A stretch of 64,000 nt of DNA from Chiloscyllium plagiosum (GCF_004010195.1 NC_057716.1:15080373-15144372), one strand, 5' to 3'; shown: positions 14,299 through 52,300, counted from the stretch's first letter. The notes: generated from the sequence alone by a model not told the origin. Program-made: numbers and translations.

Positions 14299-14511
14299 GT
14301 GATCCACAGAATACAAGATAACAACATATACTAAAGGACAGAACATTTACAAATTATCTCCCAGTTACAGTAAAATTTACAGATAGGAACCCCAGGTCCC
14401 TTCACTCCTATTAATGAACAAATAAAGTACAATTGATAACATTTTCTGTAATATGAATGAGGTCTTCTTGTGTTCAAATCAAGCTCAGCTTTTCAGAAGT
14501 TGCTTTCCTGG

Positions 14512-14538
14512 TTAGGATCTTGAATCATCATTTTGTTC
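14512..14538 (-). CDS. A terminal coding exon EQNDDSRS*
   Basis: ttccag|GAA; homologous to the terminal exons of B and C; followed by a homologous 3'UTR. Confidence 0.75.
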   Translation of the reverse strand, partial: EQNDDSRS

Positions 14539-17500
14539 CTGGAATGAACACAATCATGGTCATGGTCATTTTCAGATGAATTGAGTTCAGTATGAGTTTA
14601 GTGTGTTATGATCATGATCGAGAGACAATTCTCTGACACAAAGGTCTGGTTTATACTTACGTTTGATGACACATCAAGCAATGTTTCTGTTGACTTGCTG
14701 TTCCACTGTTAAAAACAAATTAAGATTCGTCTGCTTATTAAAGGGAATCATATCTTTCTTCTGTTATTGAGCATTGAAATTGTCTTTGGACCAAAGGTTC
14801 CTCTGATTATTAAGCCATTAGTGAGGAAATGTTATTGGTTTAAATTTACAAGGTTGACGCATGCATTATTTAAAAATACAGAGCTGTTCCACGCTTTAGT
14901 ACAATGCAATTGAATCCAAATTTCAACAGCTTATTTGTGTTGATAATATAAACAACATATATTGTCAGACTATACTCACATCTAGAGAATCCTCCATTGA
15001 TGTTTCTGTTGATTTGCCTCTCACCTGGAATATGCAGATTTATGTATTTAGTACTTTCTAAATAATCTTCATTTTTAGATTCAGCTCTAAAACAGCAGTT
15101 TAAATTATATCAAATTGTAAATAAGGTTTTACACCTGTGTTAAAATATTCAGATTACTATGTTTACATAAGGAATTCATGAGTTGTTTTGTAATTAACAT
15201 TGAATATTGGAATTATCTTCATCACGGCTTCATTATAGTGCAGAATTAGGCAATTTGGCCCATTGTGTCTGAATCAGCTGTCTGAGTGAGCGTTGTGACT
15301 TAGTGTCATGTTCCTGTCTTTTCCCATAATACTAAATATATTTCTATTTGTTTCAATTGAACCTGTCTGCATCACATTTCCATGCAGTGTGTTCGAGACC
15401 ACAACTACTCGTTGTGTGAAAACCTTTTTTATCTTATATCGTATTTGCATCTTTTTCAAATTACCTGATATCTCTGTTCTCTCATTCTTGATGCATTTAT
15501 GACCAGGGAACAGTTTCTTTCCATCTAGTTGGTCCTAACCTGTTTTGATTTTGAAACCTTCTATCAAATTTCATTTTATAGTCTTCTCCTTTCCAAGGGA
15601 AACAGACTCAATTTCTACAATCCCATGATTCTATGAACTTCTCCAATCTATTTTCATAACTGAAGTTTCTCCTCCATGAAAACATTATTGGAAAACTCTT
15701 CCACACTCTCTCAAATACATACACATTCACCTTGATGTATGGTAACCAGAACTGTATGTTGACGATCTCACTGTATGGCTTTTAAACCAAAGCTTTCATT
15801 GATTATTAAGCCAAAATGAAGAAATATTAACTCTTGCACCTTCTATTCTCTAGTCATCCATTTAATTTACTAAAAGCTCTGAGCTGACTTTATTGCGATG
15901 CAGTTAATTCCAAGTACACTTTTTTTGGATAAATCATTAAATGACAGAAGATCTCAGATGATACTCACATTTAGAGAATCCTCCAGTGAGGTTTCTGTTG
16001 ACTTGCTGTTCACCTGAATTAAGATATGGTAGAAAACTTAGCATTTTGCAAATAATCTCGATTTTTAAAATTATCTCTAAACAGAATAGTTAAATTATAT
16101 CAGATTATAAATCAGAAAGTGACAGCTCTTTTATGTTCAGAGTCTGGATTCAGTGATTCAGTGCTGGAGCAGAGAAATCCTTGCCAAACATTTCCTGTGC
16201 GCCCCAGACCCTTCTGCCCCAACGACAAACAACACACAGACAAACACAAAGTGGGACTATGGGGTCGATGGACAGACAAATGGGAGCTGACATTCTCCAT
16301 TGATGACTATGTATTTTGTCAACACTGCTAGATAATTTATATTCAATTGGATGTGGAGAATGACAGCAATGTTGTCCTCATGAAACCATCATTTTCATCC
16401 CTCCAGTTATTGGAAACTTCTCAATGTTAGAAATCAACACCATCCACTTAACATCAATCCAACAACTGAAGTTGATAACTATCGGATGTTGTGAGAGTTA
16501 GCTCATTTGTTAGGTGGTGAGAGTTTGATGCGGAGCAATGCCAACAGGATAAGCTCAATCCTTGCGCCAATTAAGATAATTTTTGGAACCATGCCCCTCA
16601 TGCTGCCCTATGGCACTAACCATCGTACACAACCCTCAGTTAATGAGCATGGTCCATGAAAAGCTAGCGAGATTAATATAAAATAATAAATACTCACATT
16701 GGGAGCATCCTCAAGGGATGTTTCTGTTGACTTGCCATTTGCCTGGAATAAAATATTCAGATTCATCAGGTTATTGCAGGGAATTAGTTTAATATTTTGT
16801 AACATATTTTGTGTTACTGAATTATAGTTAAGCGAATTAAATTTTAAATTACTACTACAATATCACATAAAATGCAATTATATTTTATTATAATATTATA
16901 ACAGAAATTATTTTAAGCCAATGATTTCAGTGATTAATAAACCATAAATTAGGGTTTATTTATGCTTAAATTTATAGGTCATAGACATGCATTTAACTAA
17001 ACGAAATACAACTACTGTCTCAGACTCTATTCTGATGCAGTTGAATCCAATTTTCGACAGTTTACATTTGTTGATAGTTATCTGACAAAAAAAATTAGAT
17101 TATAATTACATCAGGAGATTCCTCCAGTGATGATTCAGTTAACTTGCTTTCCTCCTGGATTAAAATAATCAGATTGGAATGTTTAGCATTTTGAAATGTG
17201 GAGTCAACTCAAAACAAAATCATTCAATGTCTACAGGTTCCAAATGTGGAAGTGACTACACTTTGCGTTTCCAAGTTGACAGTCAATGGCTCAGTGCTTT
17301 ACCCTTGTGAAAGGCAGTTAGCTTAGTTGGCTGGACAGCTGGTAAGTAACACCAACAACGTCGGCTCAATTCCTGCACTGGCTAAGGTTGCTGCAAACGA
17401 CTCTCCTTCTCAAACTCTCCCCTTATCTGAGGTGTGGTGACCCTCAGATTAAAACCACCACCAGTTGTGTCTCTCGCGAACAAAGGAGCAGCCTATGATC

Positions 17501-19217
17501 TGCTAGAGCTATGGGTGGAGTGGAGGAATCCTTATTGAACATCTAAAATATAGTAATAATCAACACAATCTGTGGGACTGATGGATAAATGAATGGAGGC
17601 TCTGAGTCTCCTATTGATTGAGATTCATTGTAAAAAATCTGCAGATCCATCTAGGAATGACAAATAATTAGTGTTTAGCATTGGTAAAATTGTAAGAGAC
17701 ACTGCTCTTCTAATGTCATTGCTTGTGCCTGTCCATCCCTATGGATTTCAGTTAATTTTGTCTTCAGGGAAGAACAAACTTTCTCTGTATTTGCGTTTTT
17801 GCATCAGACTGACTCCCCTGCCTTAGTATCTCAGACTAAAACAATTTGCTGTCTGATATTCCACTCTGACACATTTAGAACCTGGAGTTGAAGCATTTTT
17901 ATGAATATTTCTGATCAATAAGTAAATAATCTGACAGATTTCTAGTTTATACTCACATTAAATGATTCCTCGTTTAACATCTCCCTTGACTTAGTTTTGA
18001 CCTGTGATGAAAAGTGAATATTTCTCTATTTAGCACAGCAAACCAATGAGAAATGTAAGTTATCTGCAGTATTAAAAATCTCAAGAAGTGGATAGGTATA
18101 TTTATGAGATTACCTCATAGCTGTTTTCACTTGACTCTGAAACGTCGCTGTTGCTGTCAACAGTCTTCAAGCCTCGACACTCCACAACAACATCGACGAC
18201 CTCATCAGCAAAATATTCAACACGGCTTTTGCACAAACCTTTCTCCTGTCAAAGCAGAATTGATTAAAATTACACTCAGTAAATCCTATGATGCAACTCC
18301 CCCTCAGTACACTTGCTGGTTTGGGTGTGATAATGTGATTTTCAAACTTACCGCGGTGTTTCTGGGGCGGAAGTAACAGCTGGCATCATCAAACTCTAGT
18401 CCAGAATTCTTGGAGCAGACAGTTTCTTTCGCAGAGAATGTTAAATCCACATTGTACGACAGTTTTCCAGTGCGATGAATCTAATGAGGGAATCAGTTTG
18501 TCATTATCTGACTGCATCTAATGTCATTCAACCCTGCCTAAAAACCTGTTTCACGCATTCGTTATGACTCGACCTCACTATACTATTATTCTCTTAGCTG
18601 ACCTCCCACATCTTCCATTCCTAAAATTGAGGTCAATCAGAATTCTGGTGCCAGTACCTAACTGAAATCCAGTTCAATTTATCCCAATGCTCATTGTCTT
18701 ACATTAAGTACTAGCTAAGCAGCACCTTGAGTGTAAAATTACTATCTACTTTCAAATGTCTGCACAGTATCATCTCTCCCAACCTCCAAACTGATTCACC
18801 AGCCTAAGTGTAATATTACATTCTGCTCCTGTTTAATAATCAGTACTAAACTGCACTCAGTAATATTCTTGTAGAGTTTAGAGTGTGAAACAGACTGAGG
18901 CCAGGCCACACTTACATCCTTCACCCTTCTCCTGGTTATCCCACACAGATTGCTGGTCTCGGTGATTTGGTTCAATTTTATAACAGACGCTCTCAAAGCA
19001 TCCTTAGGGCTCGGTATTCCTGTCGATAGAGAAAAGGATAAGTTGTACAAAACATTACAGAACTCTTCAGCGAATTATTTTCCACCTCGGTGATATCTGA
19101 GTGAGTGAACCTCATTGGCAATAACTCGTTGCTTGATGAGGAGCCGCTCTCTCTCTGGGACCTACCTGAGCAGTGGACAATCTGCACTGCAGCAATGGTG
19201 AGGAGGAAGGCTTTCAT
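14512..19217 (-). CDS. spp2: SPP2/spp24-like secreted cystatin-domain phosphoprotein, paralogue A (11 coding exons, 237 aa, long acidic S-x-E repeat tail)
   Basis: Exons 19217-19166, 19019-18916, 18480-18352, 18245-18114, 18001-17957, 17154-17110, 16742-16698, 16013-15969, 15024-14980, 14705-14661, 14538-14512, all GT-AG, phase 1 then all phase 0. Protein: MKAFLLTIAAVQIVHCSG-IPSPKDALRASVIKLNQITETSNLCGITRRRVKD-IHRTGKLSYNVDLTFSAKETVCSKNSGLEFDDASCYFRPRNTA-EKGLCKSRVEYFADEVVDVVVECRGLKTVDSNSDVSESSENSYE-(6x15 aa)-EQNDDSRS*. By recall, it resembles mammalian SPP2 motifs ALSASVAKVN, MDLEFRIQETTC, CRSTVRMSAEQVQNVWVRC and the following Ser/Glu cluster. Confidence 0.82.
14661..14705 (-). CDS. A exon 10, 45-nt repeat exon WNSKSTETLLDVSSN
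   Basis: ttaacag|TGG ... AAC|GTAAGT, phase 0. Confidence 0.78.
14980..15024 (-). CDS. A exon 9, 45-nt repeat exon VRGKSTETSMEDSLD
   Basis: ttccag|GTG ... GAT|GTGAGT, phase 0. Confidence 0.78.
15969..16013 (-). CDS. A exon 8, 45-nt repeat exon VNSKSTETSLEDSLN
   Basis: attcag|GTG ... AAT|GTGAGT, phase 0. Confidence 0.78.
16698..16742 (-). CDS. A exon 7, 45-nt repeat exon ANGKSTETSLEDAPN
   Basis: ttccag|GCA ... AAT|GTGAGT, phase 0. Confidence 0.78.
17110..17154 (-). CDS. A exon 6, 45-nt repeat exon EESKLTESSLEESPD
   Basis: atccag|GAG ... GAT|GTAATT, phase 0. Confidence 0.72.
17315..17515 (+). mobile_element. Second tRNA-derived SINE family (intron 5 of A)
   Basis: GTTAGCTTAGTTGGCTGG...CAATTCC head; related copies at ~3410-3615(-), ~16497-16630(+) and ~39873-40080(+). 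Confidence 0.6.
17957..18001 (-). CDS. A exon 5, 45-nt repeat exon VKTKSREMLNEESFN
   Basis: cacag|GTC ... AAT|GTGAGT, phase 0. Confidence 0.78.
18114..18245 (-). CDS. A exon 4 (C-x17-C loop plus Ser/Glu cluster)
   Basis: Acceptor ttgacag|GAG, donor GAG|GTAATC; 132 nt. Confidence 0.85.
18352..18480 (-). CDS. A exon 3 (first disulfide loop CSKNSGLEFDDASC)
   Basis: Acceptor ctcattag|ATT, donor GCG|GTAAG; 129 nt. Confidence 0.85.
18916..19019 (-). CDS. A exon 2 (cystatin helix)
   Basis: Acceptor tcgacag|GA, donor GAT|GTAAGT; 104 nt as in B and C. Confidence 0.85.
19166..19217 (-). CDS. A exon 1: signal peptide MKAFLLTIAAVQIVHCS(G)
   Basis: ATG, hydrophobic core, donor CAG|GTAGGT, phase 1; present in all three copies. 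Confidence 0.85.
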
Positions 19218-31198: not shown

Positions 31199-31772
31199 GA
31201 AGGGAAAAACAAACCAGTGGAATGCATTGAGAACGAAGGAGAAAACAGCCAAAAAAATGTAGGATCTTGAAGGGCCAGCACTGTGTTGGCAAGTTGAAGA
31301 CAGAAATTCTCTTTTGGCCTGTGGCCAACTGAGAATTTACTGCTTGGTGTAAAAGTTTTCAAATGATTACTTTGACTCTGAGACTGGTGTCTCTTACAAA
31401 CTGGGCTTTGTTAAAATCAAATGCACCTTCTTAACTCATTTCCAATAACTCAGAATTCACAACTATCACATGCTGCAAGAATTGACACCAAAAGCACATT
31501 TTCCGCAGATGGTATATGAAACACTCTAATGTCATCATCCAGGAATGATAGCTCCACTTTAATAAGATTTTGCTACGTTGTTAATTAACCAACTCCCAAG
31601 TCGGGATTTAAAACTGTGAAGTTCCAGTTCCCCAACAGCTAGCAGTTGACGTGAAGAATGTGGTCACAGTGTGTGACAGGTTGTTTTCAGCACGGTCTCT
31701 CTGGACTCCCACCCAAACAGCAAAATAACAAACAACTTTTAGAGAAACATCAGGAAATATTCTCTTTAAAAT

Positions 31773-31778
31773 TTTAAT
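31773..31778 (-). terminator. Candidate polyadenylation signal ATTAAA of B
   Basis: Homologous to the signal in A within an alignable 3'UTR. Confidence 0.45.
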
Positions 31779-31980
31779 ATGGTCCACAGAGTACAAGACA
31801 ATACACACCAAAAGGTCAAACATTTACAAACTATAGAATCTTCCAATTACAGTGAAATATACAATCAGGAAGTCCAGGTTTATATATGAACAAGTAAAGT
31901 ACAATTGATAACATCTTGTTTAATTGGAGTGAGGTCTTGTGTTAACACCAAGCTTGGCTTTACAGAAGTTTCCTTGCTGG

Positions 31981-32013
31981 TTAGTGTCGAGATCCTGAAT
32001 CACCACAGCATTC
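31981..32013 (-). CDS. B terminal coding exon (frame 0 ECCGDSGSRH*; shifted frame (R)MLW*)
   Basis: ttccag|GAA; homologous to the A and C terminal exons. Confidence 0.7.
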   Translation of the reverse strand, partial: ECCGDSGSRH

Positions 32014-34662
32014 CTGGAATGAGCAGAATGAAGACAACGATCATATTCCGATAGACTGTGTTCAATGTTTTATTGTTATAGATGATCATGAACGAGAGAC
32101 AATTCTTTGGTAGAAAATCGCAGTTTTATACTCACGTTTGAAACCTCCCGCAGTGACCAGTCTTTTGATTTGCTTGACACCTGTATTAAAAAAATCAGAT
32201 TATTGATTTAATGCCAGGAATCAATGAATCATTTTGTTATTTTTCTAATCTATTAGACCCTTCTCTGAATAACATAATTCTATATTGTGACGTTTAAAAT
32301 GACGATGCAATGTTAGCTCCTTCAATTTTGAAGTTGGAATTCAGACACTCAGTACTGGAGTGGACAACTCCTCATCAAGTATCTCTCACTCTCCAGCGCA
32401 GTGATAATCAATCCAGTTTTGGAACAGTGGTACTGTGGTATTGGTGGATACACTAATGGGGAATTAGATTGTTGATCAGTTTACATTTGCTGCATACTCT
32501 CAAGAACACAGGAACTATTGAAAAACAGGAAGTGCTGGAGAACCTCAGCAGGTCTGGCAGCATCTTTGGAAAAAGAAACAGATTTAACGCTTCAAGGATA
32601 GTATGACTCTTCTTCAAAAGCCATGCTGGACTTAACATAGCATTTCTATTTCTTTCGCCACAGCCCCTGCCAGAGCTGCTGGGATTTGCCAGCACTTACT
32701 TTCAGAATCTGCATTGTTTTAACTTTGCACTGCAATAAATATCTGATAAATCTTGAACATCTAAAAGTTGATTCCATTACATTGTTCTAGTGTGAAATGA
32801 TATTCACGAGAAAGCATAAGCATCTCTACTTAGGCTTCTCTCAAAATCCTTTGACTAGCACTGGAGAAGATTCAGCAAGATTCATGTGTTTGTCTTCCTT
32901 CCCCCTACTGAATCTGGGTGATACTAAATTCAATAAAAACACCACACAGTACTGTGACAGGCTCCACACTAAACAGAGAAATCCAATTTATTGTCGACAA
33001 TAATGTTCTGGTGAAAATCCAGATATGTACTTACGTTTGTAGACTTTTGGACGAGAGGTTTTTCTGGCTTTCACCTGAATTTAAATAGAAATGTTTTAGT
33101 CCTGGAGTAGATTTGATGAAGCACTAGTTTTAGCATCACCACTAAATCAATAACCCAAAAAAAGATTAAATAATGAGATTTTAAATTGTTAGCTTTCTGT
33201 GATGCGGTGCAATGTTTCAGTGTGGAATGGCGAAAGCTTCACCAGATATATGGACAGTTCATGGTGGAACAAACATGAGTGCAGTCCTGGTACAGTATGG
33301 TCATTGGTCAAAGTATTAATGTAATAAAATGGACAGTGTTATGTTAACCTTAGATAATAAAGACTAATTATTTCCTTGAAGAGCAACAAGCAGTAATAAT
33401 ATTTCTGCGCAGACTTATAGCCAGGAGCGGCTCTGATCTTTGTTCCACTGCAACAAGGGATCGCCGAAGGAAGAGTTTGAAGATTTGAAATACAACTTTG
33501 AGTCGGACAAATCTGAGTCTGGGATAAAATGCAAAGTCAGAGATCCCATTGCCCTGGTGAGTTTAATGGTGAGGTTACCTCGATACTGTTTTCACTGGAC
33601 TCGAAGGATCCACTTCTGCTGTCAAACGTCTTCAACCCCCGACACTCCACGTCAACGTCAACAACCTCATCCGCAAAATATTCAACATGGCTCTTGCAAA
33701 ATCCTTTCGTCTGTCAAATGCAATGGGAGAGTATTAAAGTTATTGATCACAATAGCTTTGGCAATCACTGAGGGAGTTTTCATAACATAATTCATTACAC
33801 ATTCTACTTTTTATTGTATCTCAACTAGAATGCACAACGCTTTCTACCATGTAGTCAGTAAAAATAGCCCTCTCTATGACATAAACCAAGTCATACAGTC
33901 TTTTCTATCAATATGCATCACTCTTTCTATATGATATATCGATAAACATGATCTCTAATTCAGGCCACATCGTCCTTCCTATGACATAAGATCCTTTCTG
34001 TGATATTAACATGATGGTTTGGATGTGACAATGTAATTGAGAACTTACTGCAGGCTTTTTGGTGCGGAAATAGCAGCTGGGATCATCAAATTCCAGTCCA
34101 GAATTCTTGGAGCAGACGGTTTCTTTCACAGAGAATGTTAAATCCACATTGTATGACAATTTCCCTGTGCGGTAAATCTAATGAGAGGAAAACAGTTCAT
34201 GAGTGTCTGACTGTGTCTGGTGCTCTTACTCTGAGCTGATTCACCCACAGCTTAAATGTAATATAACATTCTGCTTCTGTTTAATAAGCTGTGTGGAACT
34301 ACACTCTAATATTCTTGTAGAGTTTAGAGAGTGAAAAAGATTGAGACCAGGCCACACTTACATCCTTCACCCTTCTCCTGGTTATCCCACACAGATTGCT
34401 GGTCTCGGTGATTTGGTTCAGTTTTATAACAGACACTCTCAAAGCATCCTTAGGCCTTGGTATTCCTGTCGATAGAGAAAAGGATAAGTTGTACAAAACA
34501 TTCCATAATTGTTCAACAAATTATTTTTCCACCTCGGTGATATCTGAGGGAGTGAACCTCAATGGCAATAACTCGTTGCTTGATGAAGAGTCACTCTCTC
34601 TGGGACCTACCTGAGCAGTGGACAATCTGCACTGCAGCAATGGTGAGGAGGAAGGCTTTCAT
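31981..34662 (-). CDS. spp2: SPP2/spp24-like paralogue B (7 exons; 171 aa with cationic tail if the 40-nt exon 5 is included, stop at 32002-32000; 164 aa ending at 31981 if it is skipped)
   Basis: Exons 34662-34611, 34465-34362, 34177-34049, 33710-33579, 33074-33035 (40 nt), 32180-32136, 32013-31981. Exons 1-4 have the same sizes as in A (52/104/129/132 nt) with canonical GT-AG. Confidence 0.8.
32136..32180 (-). CDS. B exon 6, 45-nt repeat-type exon
   Basis: atacag|GTG ... AAC|GTGAGT; frame 0 VSSKSKDWSLREVSN, shifted frame (R)VKQIKRLVTAGGFK. Confidence 0.72.
33035..33074 (-). CDS. B exon 5, 40-nt frame-shifting derivative of the 45-nt repeat exon (VKARKTSRPKVYK+1 nt)
   Basis: attcag|GTG ... 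AAAC|GTAAGT; splice contexts match the repeat exons of A, but the length is not a multiple of 3. Confidence 0.6.
33579..33710 (-). CDS. B exon 4 TKGFCKSHVEYFADEVVDVDVECRGLKTFDSRSGSFESSENSIE
   Basis: 132 nt, GT-AG. Confidence 0.85.
34049..34177 (-). CDS. B exon 3 IYRTGKLSYNVDLTFSVKETVCSKNSGLEFDDPSCYFRTKKPA
   Basis: 129 nt, GT-AG. Confidence 0.85.
34362..34465 (-). CDS. B exon 2 IPRPKDALRVSVIKLNQITETSNLCGITRRRVKD
   Basis: 104 nt, GT-AG, 2 aa differences from A. Confidence 0.85.
34611..34662 (-). CDS. B exon 1: signal peptide
   Basis: Identical peptide to A exon 1. Confidence 0.85.
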
Positions 34663-49378: not shown

Positions 49379-52300
49379 CTGGAATTAACAGAATGAAGAA
49401 ATGTTCATTTTCAGATGGACTGAGTTCGGTCCAAGTTAAAGTTTTATTGTTGTTGATAGTCATTATTGAGAGATAATTCTCTGATCCAAAGTCTGAGCTT
49501 ATACTCACATTTAGAGATTCCTCCATCCATGATTCCCTTGATGACATTTTCAGCTGCATTGAAATATTAAGATATTTAGCACAGGGAATCACTTTTCTCA
49601 AACTTTAAAATGATTTCCAAACAAAAGATACAAATAACTTAACGTAGAATGAGAGTAAATTTCCTCTGTTACAGATATGTGATTGTAACTCAGTGTCTAG
49701 GTGAATGGTTGTATAGAACACAACAGTTGTATTTCTACTACACTAATGTAATGAAAGTCCCAAAGTTCATTCACGGTACAACAAAGTATGACACCAAGAT
49801 ACCTTAGGAAATAGTAAGGTAAGTGACCAGAAGTTGGGTTAAAGAGGTACATTTTAAGGATTAAAGGATAAAAATTAGGTCAACAAATCGAGAGGGTTAG
49901 GGAAGGAATTCAAAAGCTTAAGGCCAAGGCAACTGAAAGGACAGCTGCAAATGCTCAAGTGATTAAAACTGGGAATGCACAACAGATATCTTGGAGGTTT
50001 GTAGCGCTTGAGGTGATTACAACATGATTAGAACGCTAGCATATAGTGTATTTGCCAGATCAATGAACTGGAATGATATGGCCTGCGATGGCTTAGTGTT
50101 TCAAAAGGCCAGTTCTCTGCAAGCATGTTTTTTAACTGTCACAAGTCCTAGAGATGACAGTGGGAACACCGTATTTGTAATAGTCATCTATTCAGAATGA
50201 TGTAGCAAGTCATTTCTATCGGGGAATCTTCCAGTTTAGCTTTGCTCCCCTGAAACATTGACTTTGAATTTGTGGTGGTGGAACATTGTGCAAATTCTTA
50301 ATGATGATGGCGTCAACCCCTCCCTCCCTTCCTCTATAAACTCTACCATCTTCACAACTCTCTGAGATATCTGTTCTCCAATTTTGACTTCTTACATTTT
50401 CCTTATTTTGGTCACTACTTAGTTTCAGCAGTTCCTTCATCTGTGAAGGTCATATGTTCTGGAACTCCTTTTCTAAAAATGCTCCTTCTATCTTCCCTGC
50501 TTCGATATAGGCTGTTGTTATATGGGTTCATTTGCTTTAGCCTCCTACTATGGTTGCTTTTGCTTTAGCGTTGAGCAACAAACATATTGGGACCAACTTG
50601 TATTTCGAGTGGACAGATAAAAGGTGGTGCAGACTAAACTGTAATCCTTGCTGTGAGGCCCATGTCATTTTGAGAGTTGTGCCATATCTGTAGAGAATAG
50701 ACAACTTTGGATACTGAGCCAGCACCTAGGCAGCACCAGCTAAGGGCTTGAGAGTTATGGGGGTGGGTGGGGAGGAATGAGGGTGAAATAGATGATCCTC
50801 TATGCAGCTGAGCTGTAAGATCAGACTGAAAGGGAAGAAGAGGAAATTCAGGGGAGGAGGTTTTGCCTTATGAATAGTTGGTACGCAGCATTTTTTGGCC
50901 AGGAAGATAATTTATGTTCATCCTAGTCTGGCAGAAATCATCATATGGTGATTTTATCATGTTGCCAGTATGTCTGCAGCAAATCTTTAAGATCCTCTGA
51001 TTGATTAATCTGAGCCTATTACCAATACATGCAGAATGTGAAAGAACGATATAATCTGTTGGTATTTCTAAATTGCAGTGGCAAATGAAAAAAGGGACGG
51101 AGGTGTCTGAAATGCATGTTATATTTCGGCTCATGACTGGGACACTGAGGCTTCCCCATGAATATCAGCTGTTAGGGGCAGGCAGTCTGCTCACCACTAC
51201 AGGTTTCTGAGCGTAATTTCTCCCCAATTCAATCCATTGCTCACACTGTAAACTAACACGTAGCAATTGTGAGTTCCATTTAACAATTGCACAGGAACTG
51301 GAAAATAGACCACACAGCAAATGCACCAAATCACGCCAACATTTAAATTTAAAAAAACACTTTGCACTCATCATGAAATTATCATCTGCTTAAACAAAGG
51401 GAAAGAGTTAGGAATAGTAAACAGGGATATCAATAGTATCAGCTGTGCTTGGTTAACTGCATAGAATTCTTTGAAAATCTAACATGTGTGTTAGATGGGG
51501 GAATTGGACTATGGAGTATGTACAGATTTTGGGAAAGTCTTTGATAAAGCTTCACAGAACACAATATCAGAAAATATTATGGAATGGAGGGGTGGGAGGA
51601 TTACATTTTGGATCTGGGCACCACTTTTATTTGTTCTGCAATGTAATGCCCTTCATTTTTGTTGTACTTATGGTGGTGGGAGAACAACAGACCAAGATCA
51701 CGTGATTAAATAAAAAAACTTCTGAAGATTGACAGCTTACCTCTTCACTGCTGTTAGTTAATTCCGATGATCCTCCATTATGACTGACTCTTGCTGATGG
51801 TTTTCTGTGGCCTTTTCTGCCTTTCGTGGGTTTGCTGTGAGGTTTCCCTCCTTGAGAAATGTCACTATGCTCTCTGTTACCTCTGTATATATCACTTTCA
51901 CTCCTCAGCCTCTCCGGTGAGTCTCTGTTACCCCTGGCCCTTTTGAACCCATGACATTCAACATCAACATCGAGTACCTCATCAGCTAAGTATTTAACAC
52001 GACTCCTGCATGTAGCTGTCTCCTGCAGAAACAAAAGCCACATTAGGGGTGAGCACTGCTGTGTGTGGTTTCCAATTCCTGAAACTTCATATCTGCTGCT
52101 GCACCGATACGACCTTGAGAAACAGATTCTGAGCCAATGGTCCTTTATTTGGACCGGTACTTTGCAAAATGACAGTGACTTTCTCTTGGATTTCTGAGAC
52201 ATTGTTGTGAAATCAAATTGCAGGTGTCAGGAGCAAACCTCGGTGGAGAAAGCCAATGGGAAGGTACAAAAAATGATGTTTGAGATTTCCCTCTTCTTAA

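Follow-up and report, generated by a model that had tools for sequence, protein, structure and literature searches.

Secreted phosphoprotein 24 (Spp24) of mammals is known to carry a basic, Arg-rich C-terminus (PMC3753320), and a recent study of the family in cartilaginous fishes (PMC13188829, BMC Biol 2026) describes all spp2.1, spp2.2 and spp2.3 copies as rich in Ser-x-Glu (S-x-E) motifs, with a basic end only in spp2.1, spp2.L2 and the elephant shark. In a stretch of 64,000 nucleotides (nt) from the shark Chiloscyllium plagiosum (GCF_004010195.1 NC_057716.1:15080373-15144372; hereafter the window), we analysed an spp2.3 paralogue on the minus strand, gene B, in which a 40-nt exon changes the reading frame and gives the protein a cationic tail. 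Gene B shares with mammalian Spp24 and shark spp2.1 a signal peptide, a domain of the cystatin-like type, a Ser-rich segment and a basic end, but its basic end comes from acidic repeat exons read in another frame. With the described spp2.3 clade and catshark spp2.3s2 it shares family and cluster, but not the S-x-E-rich tail (3 S-x-E, as compared to 10-13 in the acidic proteins P0044, P0046 and P0050), and its tail is one common to sharks and rays. Moreover, mammalian Spp24 is liver-derived (PMC3753320), whereas the catshark orthologue of gene B is at 0 transcripts per million (TPM) in liver (PMC13188829). Frameshifts with comparable outcomes have been described elsewhere: in the euAP3 motif of MADS-box genes (PMC1513400), a shift after duplication likewise made a new conserved C-terminal motif, and in the mutant calreticulin of myeloproliferative neoplasms (PMC12966597), a shift likewise swaps an acidic Ca-binding tail for a basic one with a new function. 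Gene B differs from the former in having a 3n+1 exon within an exon-repeat array, in spanning three exons, in reversing charge and in encoding a secreted protein; the calreticulin shift is somatic, pathological and into the other alternative frame, whereas that of gene B is germline and fixed across a vertebrate subclass. We found no description of the frameshift, of its antiquity or of a basic spp2.3 subtype in the literature searched, from which subscription journals fell outside the scope. The available text of PMC13188829, which does list the gene, denies spp2.3 proteins a basic end and makes no mention of frameshift, cationic, heparin, cathelicidin, antimicrobial or concerted, and the basic spp2.3 variant appears to have been overlooked there, although its figures (the Fig. 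9 alignment) or.fas supplements may display the tail.

The seven-exon model of gene B (171 amino acids) is letter for letter protein P0119 and RefSeq XP_043550483.1, and the shifted reading is thus already in public annotation, though without remark; this accession and the catshark orthologue (P0132, XP_038646303.1, spp2.3s2) are both in Table S14 of PMC13188829. The exons are as follows.

34611..34662, minus strand: exon 1, 52 nt, signal peptide; model identical to P0119
34362..34465, minus strand: exon 2, 104 nt, start of the cystatin-like domain; joint 34362/34177 in run X1
34049..34177, minus strand: exon 3, 129 nt, Spp-24 domain with Cys74 and Cys87
33579..33710, minus strand: exon 4, 132 nt, Cys100, Cys118 and a short Ser/acidic linker, ending in phase 0; joints in transcripts
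33035..33074, minus strand: exon 5, 40 nt, shifting the frame from phase 0 to phase 1; spliced, 40 letters
32136..32180, minus strand: exon 6, a 45-nt repeat unit read in phase 1; homologous to acidic exons
31758..32013, minus strand: last exon, stop TGA at 32002-32000, ATTAAA at 31778-31773, poly(A) at about 31758

The protein matches the Spp-24 family PF07448 (37 bits against a cut-off of 26, E 3.8e-09), and its N-terminal 18 residues are hydrophobic and, judged by eye, signal-peptide-like. Four cysteines are conserved (Cys74, 87, 100 and 118), and a Ser-rich S-x-E segment follows the domain at residues 126-139, three S-x-E being present in the mature protein. Its cystatin region clusters with spp2.3, from which spp2.2 is separated with an SH-like approximate likelihood ratio test (SH-aLRT) value of 100. 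Identity with the gill-expressed spp2.1 was considered and rejected, as spp2.1 is a separate gene at ~15.21 Mb and the orthologue of gene B is spp2.3s2. A PDB sequence search with gene B gave no relevant match, a Foldseek search with a low-confidence model gave nothing at E<=0.001 (top rows chemerin and cystatins), and a search for longer homologues (alignment A1, proteins of at least 416 residues only) found nothing.

The frame-shifting exon was confirmed in transcripts. The evidence consists of contigs from eight of 22 listed runs, and because contigs drop rare variants, minor isoforms could escape; no run is recorded as RNA, but we take the runs to be transcripts because they hold spliced joints and poly(A). 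The borders of exon 5 are canonical (ttcag acceptor, gtaagt donor), and the joints 33579/33074, 33035/32180 and 32136/32013, which an earlier reading of the sequence alone (the sequence-only reading) had singled out for checking, were all present in four of the eight runs (X1, X3, X4 and X7, from three studies). Two of the three were clean in X2 and X8, and none was listed in X5 or X11; in the raw single-cell data of X11, about 2% of which was read, no reads fell on the tail exons. In X7, a single gap-free contig runs from the poly(A) at 31758 through exons 7 and 6 and exactly 40 letters of exon 5 into exon 4. The 40-nt exon with normal splice contexts is thus upheld by the genome sequence, the predicted joints and the RefSeq model, and translation agrees with the predicted tail of 32 residues with 12 Lys or Arg, no Asp or Glu and a stop inside the last exon. 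By contrast, the provisos that one more A might give an in-frame 39-nt exon, that an acceptor 7 nt downstream might leave 33 nt, or that exon 5 might be constitutively skipped were not borne out: the contigs of the eight runs list no exon 5 indel, no skip and no joint at the +7 acceptor. The former phase-0 acidic ending (to TAA 31983-31981) does remain intact, as had been noted, and overlaps the 3' untranslated region of the last exon. Separately, a high-copy repeat fragment in intron 5 (window 32520-32590) attracts many unrelated contigs and reads.

The tail has a net charge of +12 with 41% hydrophobic residues, giving a mature pI of 9.8 as compared to 4.6-5.5 in three acidic siblings. Although the sequence-only reading treated the shift as particular to gene B, in which it is real, it is elasmobranch-wide, and orthologues retain the shifted frame rather than holding frame 0. 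A second copy in the same genome, copy D, lies ~127 kb from gene B in inverted orientation and has its own 40-nt exon with ten base differences; it has no AG at +7, and the frame from there would reach TGA. Copy D keeps the phase-1 stop and has lost the phase-0 stop, and its single exon 6 change is silent in phase 1. Between the B and D tails, the codons of the used frame show two synonymous and seven other changes, and those of the old frame no synonymous and ten other changes (one stop gained, one lost). Of the 139 proteins compared, 29 contain a core that in gene B lies at residues 150-161 and is encoded by the end of exon 5 and by exon 6; they represent 16 of the 22 elasmobranch species sampled, namely carpet, cat, hound, basking, horn, sevengill and saw sharks together with four rays. 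When each of these 16 species is represented by a single sequence, the 12-residue core is 87% identical (81% shark versus ray), as compared to 82% for the cystatin part (75% shark versus ray); identity is no more than 39% in the first ten tail residues, and 42% in the acidic 45-nt exon of the seven spp2.2 proteins used for comparison. The catshark spp2.3s2 probe, synthesised from a predicted transcript (PMC13188829), reads by eye as 40+45+45 nt, with the 45-nt unit doubled and TAA in frame 0 of both, taking exon borders from gene B. Judged from these comparisons, the shifted tail is old and selected in sharks and rays.

Basic tails seem to have arisen several times in the family. Three skates (P0070, P0140 and P0141) share a Lys-rich spp2.3 copy arisen by in-frame change, stingrays (P0066, P0142) have an spp2.3 copy with an Arg-rich tandem repeat of a last-exon motif, and the ends of Narcine P0064 and P0143 resemble a second, independent phase-1 reading of 45-nt units, either a real shift or an annotation artefact. 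In elephant shark P0150, a short basic stretch is embedded among acidic S-x-E repeats, so that both charges occur in one chain. In Carcharodon P0138, the cationic-type linker of exon 4 is joined straight to an acidic last exon, exons 5-6 being lost or skipped by the annotation.

With regard to origin, we compared the tail exons of gene B with 20 45-nt tail exons of non-shifted copies, collected by a non-exhaustive profile scan (a likely pseudogene contributed one of the 20, and a 42-nt exon was set aside). Exon 6 is identical to these acidic exons at a mean of 24.9 of 45 positions, as compared to 14.0 for shuffles, none of 100000 of which scored as high. Aligning the two 40-nt exons to the acidic units takes a single 5-nt gap, whose best position is close to the 5' end (scores as high were reached by 4 and 1 of 1000 shuffles), and exon 5 is therefore likely to be a 45-nt repeat unit minus 5 nt. 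Because the gap lies near the 5' end of exon 5, almost the entire tail is in the new frame. None of the 20 acidic exons has a stop in phase 0, as compared to 13 in phase 1. In rays and the sawshark the tail stops at exon 6 codon 10, a position at which 10 of the 20 acidic exons carry a latent stop in phase 1. The mean net charge of the acidic exons is +2.05 in phase 1 as compared to -1.15 in phase 0, which makes exon 8 of the neighbouring paralogue A, put forward earlier as a control with a non-cationic shifted frame, unrepresentative. The codons for S-K-S-T-E read K-Q-V-N-R in phase 1, one change from the conserved K-Q-[IV]-K-R. No similarity of the gene B tail to the basic tail of spp2.1 was found at the protein or DNA level. 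Because the tail exons are homologous to acidic 45-nt exons in another frame and unrelated to the spp2.1 tail, a single old frameshift is likely, in keeping with the earlier proposal that the acidic S-x-E tail became cationic independently of other basic tails; comparison of these sequences places one acidic-to-basic shift, probably, in the elasmobranch stem, before the shark-ray split. That split dates to roughly 250-300 million years ago.

In a quick tree built from 127 rows of the cystatin region (12 others, being fused, partial or redundant, were dropped; 59 of 121 forks open), the basic-tailed genes fall among acidic copies of their own lineage. This placement needs eight changes, and holding the basic-tailed genes together is rejected (approximately unbiased test, p = 0.00066). 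Because eight independent origins of one motif are implausible, the cystatin exons have likely been homogenised within lineages, through gene conversion with neighbouring paralogues. Gene B and copy D are 99% alike in exon 4, ~89-92% in the flanking intron and ~76% around exon 5; among spp2.3 copies, similarity in exons 1-2 is 92-100%. The B/D conversion is patchy and bridges ~127 kb, the two copies being inverted relative to each other (window 33300-33750 and 31750-32200, compared with L002/L007). The spp2.3 pattern is read in PMC13188829 as recent, independent lineage-specific duplication, and gene conversion is unmentioned in its available text; on our reading, the grouping of spp2.3 genes species by species would be partly gene conversion and not independent recent duplication.

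The catshark data suggest where such a tail may act. In PMC13188829, the skeletal values of spp2.3s2 are 2692 TPM (Meckel's cartilage), 2378 (vertebrae) and 877 (chondrocranium), as compared to 0 in blood and liver, 3.2 in spleen, 2.0 in gills and a value within 0-3 in intestine. In embryonic vertebrae it rises from 266 TPM before to 1205 after the onset of mineralisation, the highest spp2 there among the Table 1 rows seen, and the acidic copy s7 rises from 33 to 774. The tesseral body zone holds sulfated glycosaminoglycans in abundance (PMC12558651). Because the tail is basic and conserved, and belongs to a protein that chondrocytes secrete into a matrix with plentiful sulfated glycosaminoglycans, we favour polyanion binding, and most likely the tail would serve as a polyanion-binding anchor in mineralising cartilage. 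One could envision a 45-nt unit losing 5 nt and exposing a latent, mildly basic frame, in which selection then fixed the core V-Y-K-R-V-K-Q-[IV]-K-R. This core would fold as an amphipathic helix on chondroitin or heparan sulfate, on polyphosphate or on the phospho-tails of the siblings, sulfated glycosaminoglycans being the first-choice ligand. The tail would thereby tether the cystatin domain, which binds bone morphogenetic protein (BMP) and TGF-beta, in the matrix, and may neutralise polyanions locally, in advance of the mineral front, with the acidic siblings binding calcium phosphate. Taken as a whole, the account in which a spliced 40-nt exon and a conserved +12 tail go back to a single shift before the shark-ray split, with the tail binding polyanions and tethering a BMP/TGF-beta-binding domain, strikes us as evenly balanced between right and wrong.

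Several observations weigh against this account. A heparin consensus, XBBXBX (PMC3029338), lies at the exon 5/6 junction and fits polyanion binding; all 25 cationic rows scored have it, but it also occurs in 3239 of 10000 shuffles of the gene B tail and is unremarkable for its composition, and 2877 of 10000 shuffles match or exceed the hydrophobic moment; amphipathicity and the heparin motif were accordingly rejected as stand-alone evidence. The predicted helix at 153-163 comes from a poor model (mean pLDDT 45, tail <50), and among the 97 twelve-residue windows of the cystatin part, 30 equal the core in conservation. The core is absent among matches from three skates, two Mobula and Carcharodon, for which copy sampling is incomplete, and the tail may be dispensable or have been overlooked. 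As a pointer to direction, the acidic relic of the last exon agrees with the shift but is weak, as conversion could have supplied it; the last exons of catshark s2 and s7 are nearly identical. The expression values come from another species and from Kallisto mapping among paralogues ~96-98% alike, the in situ probes are not specific to s2 (PMC13188829), and the Chiloscyllium transcript runs carry no tissue assignment.

Alternatively, the tail could be a processing cassette whose Lys-Arg pairs are convertase sites, so that its removal, like that of the labile Arg-rich end of mammalian Spp24, switches off BMP/TGF-beta inhibition or releases a short signalling peptide; we see a modest chance of this. 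The first pair does not vary in any of the 16 species, and the second is kept in 15 of them. However, the furin consensus requires Arg at P4, which neither site in gene B has, and conservation between the pairs equals that of the pairs themselves, which suits a binding surface. In mammals, the Arg-rich end of Spp24 is indeed cleaved, yielding forms of 18.1, 16.0 and 14.5 kDa with weaker BMP/TGF-beta binding (PMC3753320). Processing is compatible with the polyanion-binding account and does not exclude it.

The sequence-only reading had likened gene B to cathelicidins and proposed an antimicrobial-like or heparin-binding tail. Gene B does share with cathelicidins a cystatin-superfamily domain, an acidic linker and a cationic C-terminal peptide, and a released microbicidal tail, as an independent cystatin-plus-cationic-peptide design, would fit its net charge, its hydrophobic content and the weak fold matches of the low-confidence model, which include cathelin domains (E 0.085-0.11). 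Peptides with a heparin consensus are often antibacterial (PMC3029338), and that of gene B may well kill bacteria in low-salt assays as others do; such killing in vitro is expected of many peptides of this kind, however, and would not show a biological role. A host-defence role seems unlikely to us, as Pfam family, exon number, peptide conservation and tissue all differ. The cathelicidin family PF00666 does not match gene B, and two orthologues score 12.9 and 13.4 bits against a cut-off of 21. Seven coding exons, with the peptide spread over exons 5-7, contrast with the four exons of cathelicidins, where the peptide is on exon 4 (PMC3487008). The core is conserved rather than variable, although the first ten tail residues are not, and the catshark orthologue stays within 0-3 TPM in blood, spleen, gill and intestine as compared to >2300 in cartilage. 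By its sequence gene B is a member of the Spp24/spp2.3 group and not a cathelicidin; of the two functions proposed, the antimicrobial one is disfavoured on these four grounds and heparin binding is the one we favour. No literature on Spp24, antimicrobial peptides and sharks together was found within the same search scope, and a review of fish immunity, in the portion available, mentions cathelicidins for teleosts only (PMC6795676). As a separate observation, spp2.1 is a better candidate than gene B for barrier defence, its catshark orthologue reaching 6145 TPM in gill with expression in gill and taste-bud epithelium (PMC13188829).

There is a slim chance that the polarity is the reverse, the phase-1 basic tail being the older, the acidic arrays having arisen by the opposite shift and the likeness to spp2.3 being due to conversion. 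The last two coding introns of human SPP2 are probably phase 1. Seven coding exons are also present in human SPP2 (PMC4602186), the Spp24s of outgroups are basic at their ends (PMC13188829), and gene conversion is pervasive. On the other side, spp2.1 (whose exon 5 has 51 nt and whose last exon is basic) and spp2.2 are in phase 0 throughout the tail, as are the acidic spp2.3 copies examined; elephant shark XP_007905871.1 is acidic, with 23 S-x-E, an acidic-type end and no core; the core was sought in 65 further representatives, including bony-vertebrate Spp24-like proteins, and found in none; and the gene B tail does not resemble the basic tail of spp2.1. Most improbable is a neutral or artefactual tail (an assembly error, a skipped exon or an unselected sequence), for although the old ending persists in gene B, Carcharodon P0138 joins a cationic-type exon 4 directly to the acidic ending and the first ten tail residues vary, the 40-nt exon is spliced in three studies, is present in two genomic copies and belongs to a tail whose core is conserved in sharks and rays, and the assembly-error and skipping forms are already contradicted.

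Gene B is one of three minus-strand paralogues of a tandem cluster in the window. The other two are the following.

14496..19217, minus strand: paralogue A, acidic spp2.3, with six 45-nt phase-0 S-x-E exons; closest protein P0050
49337..59174, minus strand: paralogue C, spp2.2-type, with one 45-nt phase-0 exon and an acidic last exon; closest protein P0112

Exon 4 of paralogue C (window 51741-52022) is lengthened to ~282 nt and encodes a Gly/Lys/His-rich basic insert, which is kept among the spp2.2 proteins seen. Genome-wide, nine spp2.2/2.3 copies matching exon 3 lie inside ~270 kb, together with a more distant spp2.1 gene (G000:C7:15210700-15218750; L024, L025) that has a 51-nt exon 5 and a Lys/Arg-rich last exon. 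Just to the left of the window lies an spp2.3 copy (G000:C7:15072900-15079600; L006) that is a likely pseudogene, its exon 3 holding a TGA and its last exon an early stop. An exon 3 query retained 118 proteins of 120 candidates, all from sharks or rays and most labelled secreted phosphoprotein 24-like.

Gene B offers a clean vertebrate case in which a frameshift gave rise to a new, conserved protein motif and in which some 20 sibling exons of the same cluster still show the parent frame. It changes the reading of the recent family study, in that one of the two top spp2 transcripts of adult catshark vertebrae and Meckel's cartilage (PMC13188829) is basic and not acidic and mineral-binding, and it opens a direct and inexpensive way of testing how elasmobranchs control the mineralisation of their cartilage. 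More tentatively, and with the greater likelihood of being wrong, the frameshift in the elasmobranch stem may have created a basic twin that chondrocytes co-secrete with its acidic phosphorylated siblings, the charge-complementary pair setting the sites of cartilage mineralisation, and skates, which seem to lack the basic twin, may have re-evolved a Lys-rich copy in frame. If so, the charge flip of calreticulin would have a natural and fixed parallel here, and spp2.3 copies could no longer be viewed as recent, equivalent duplicates.

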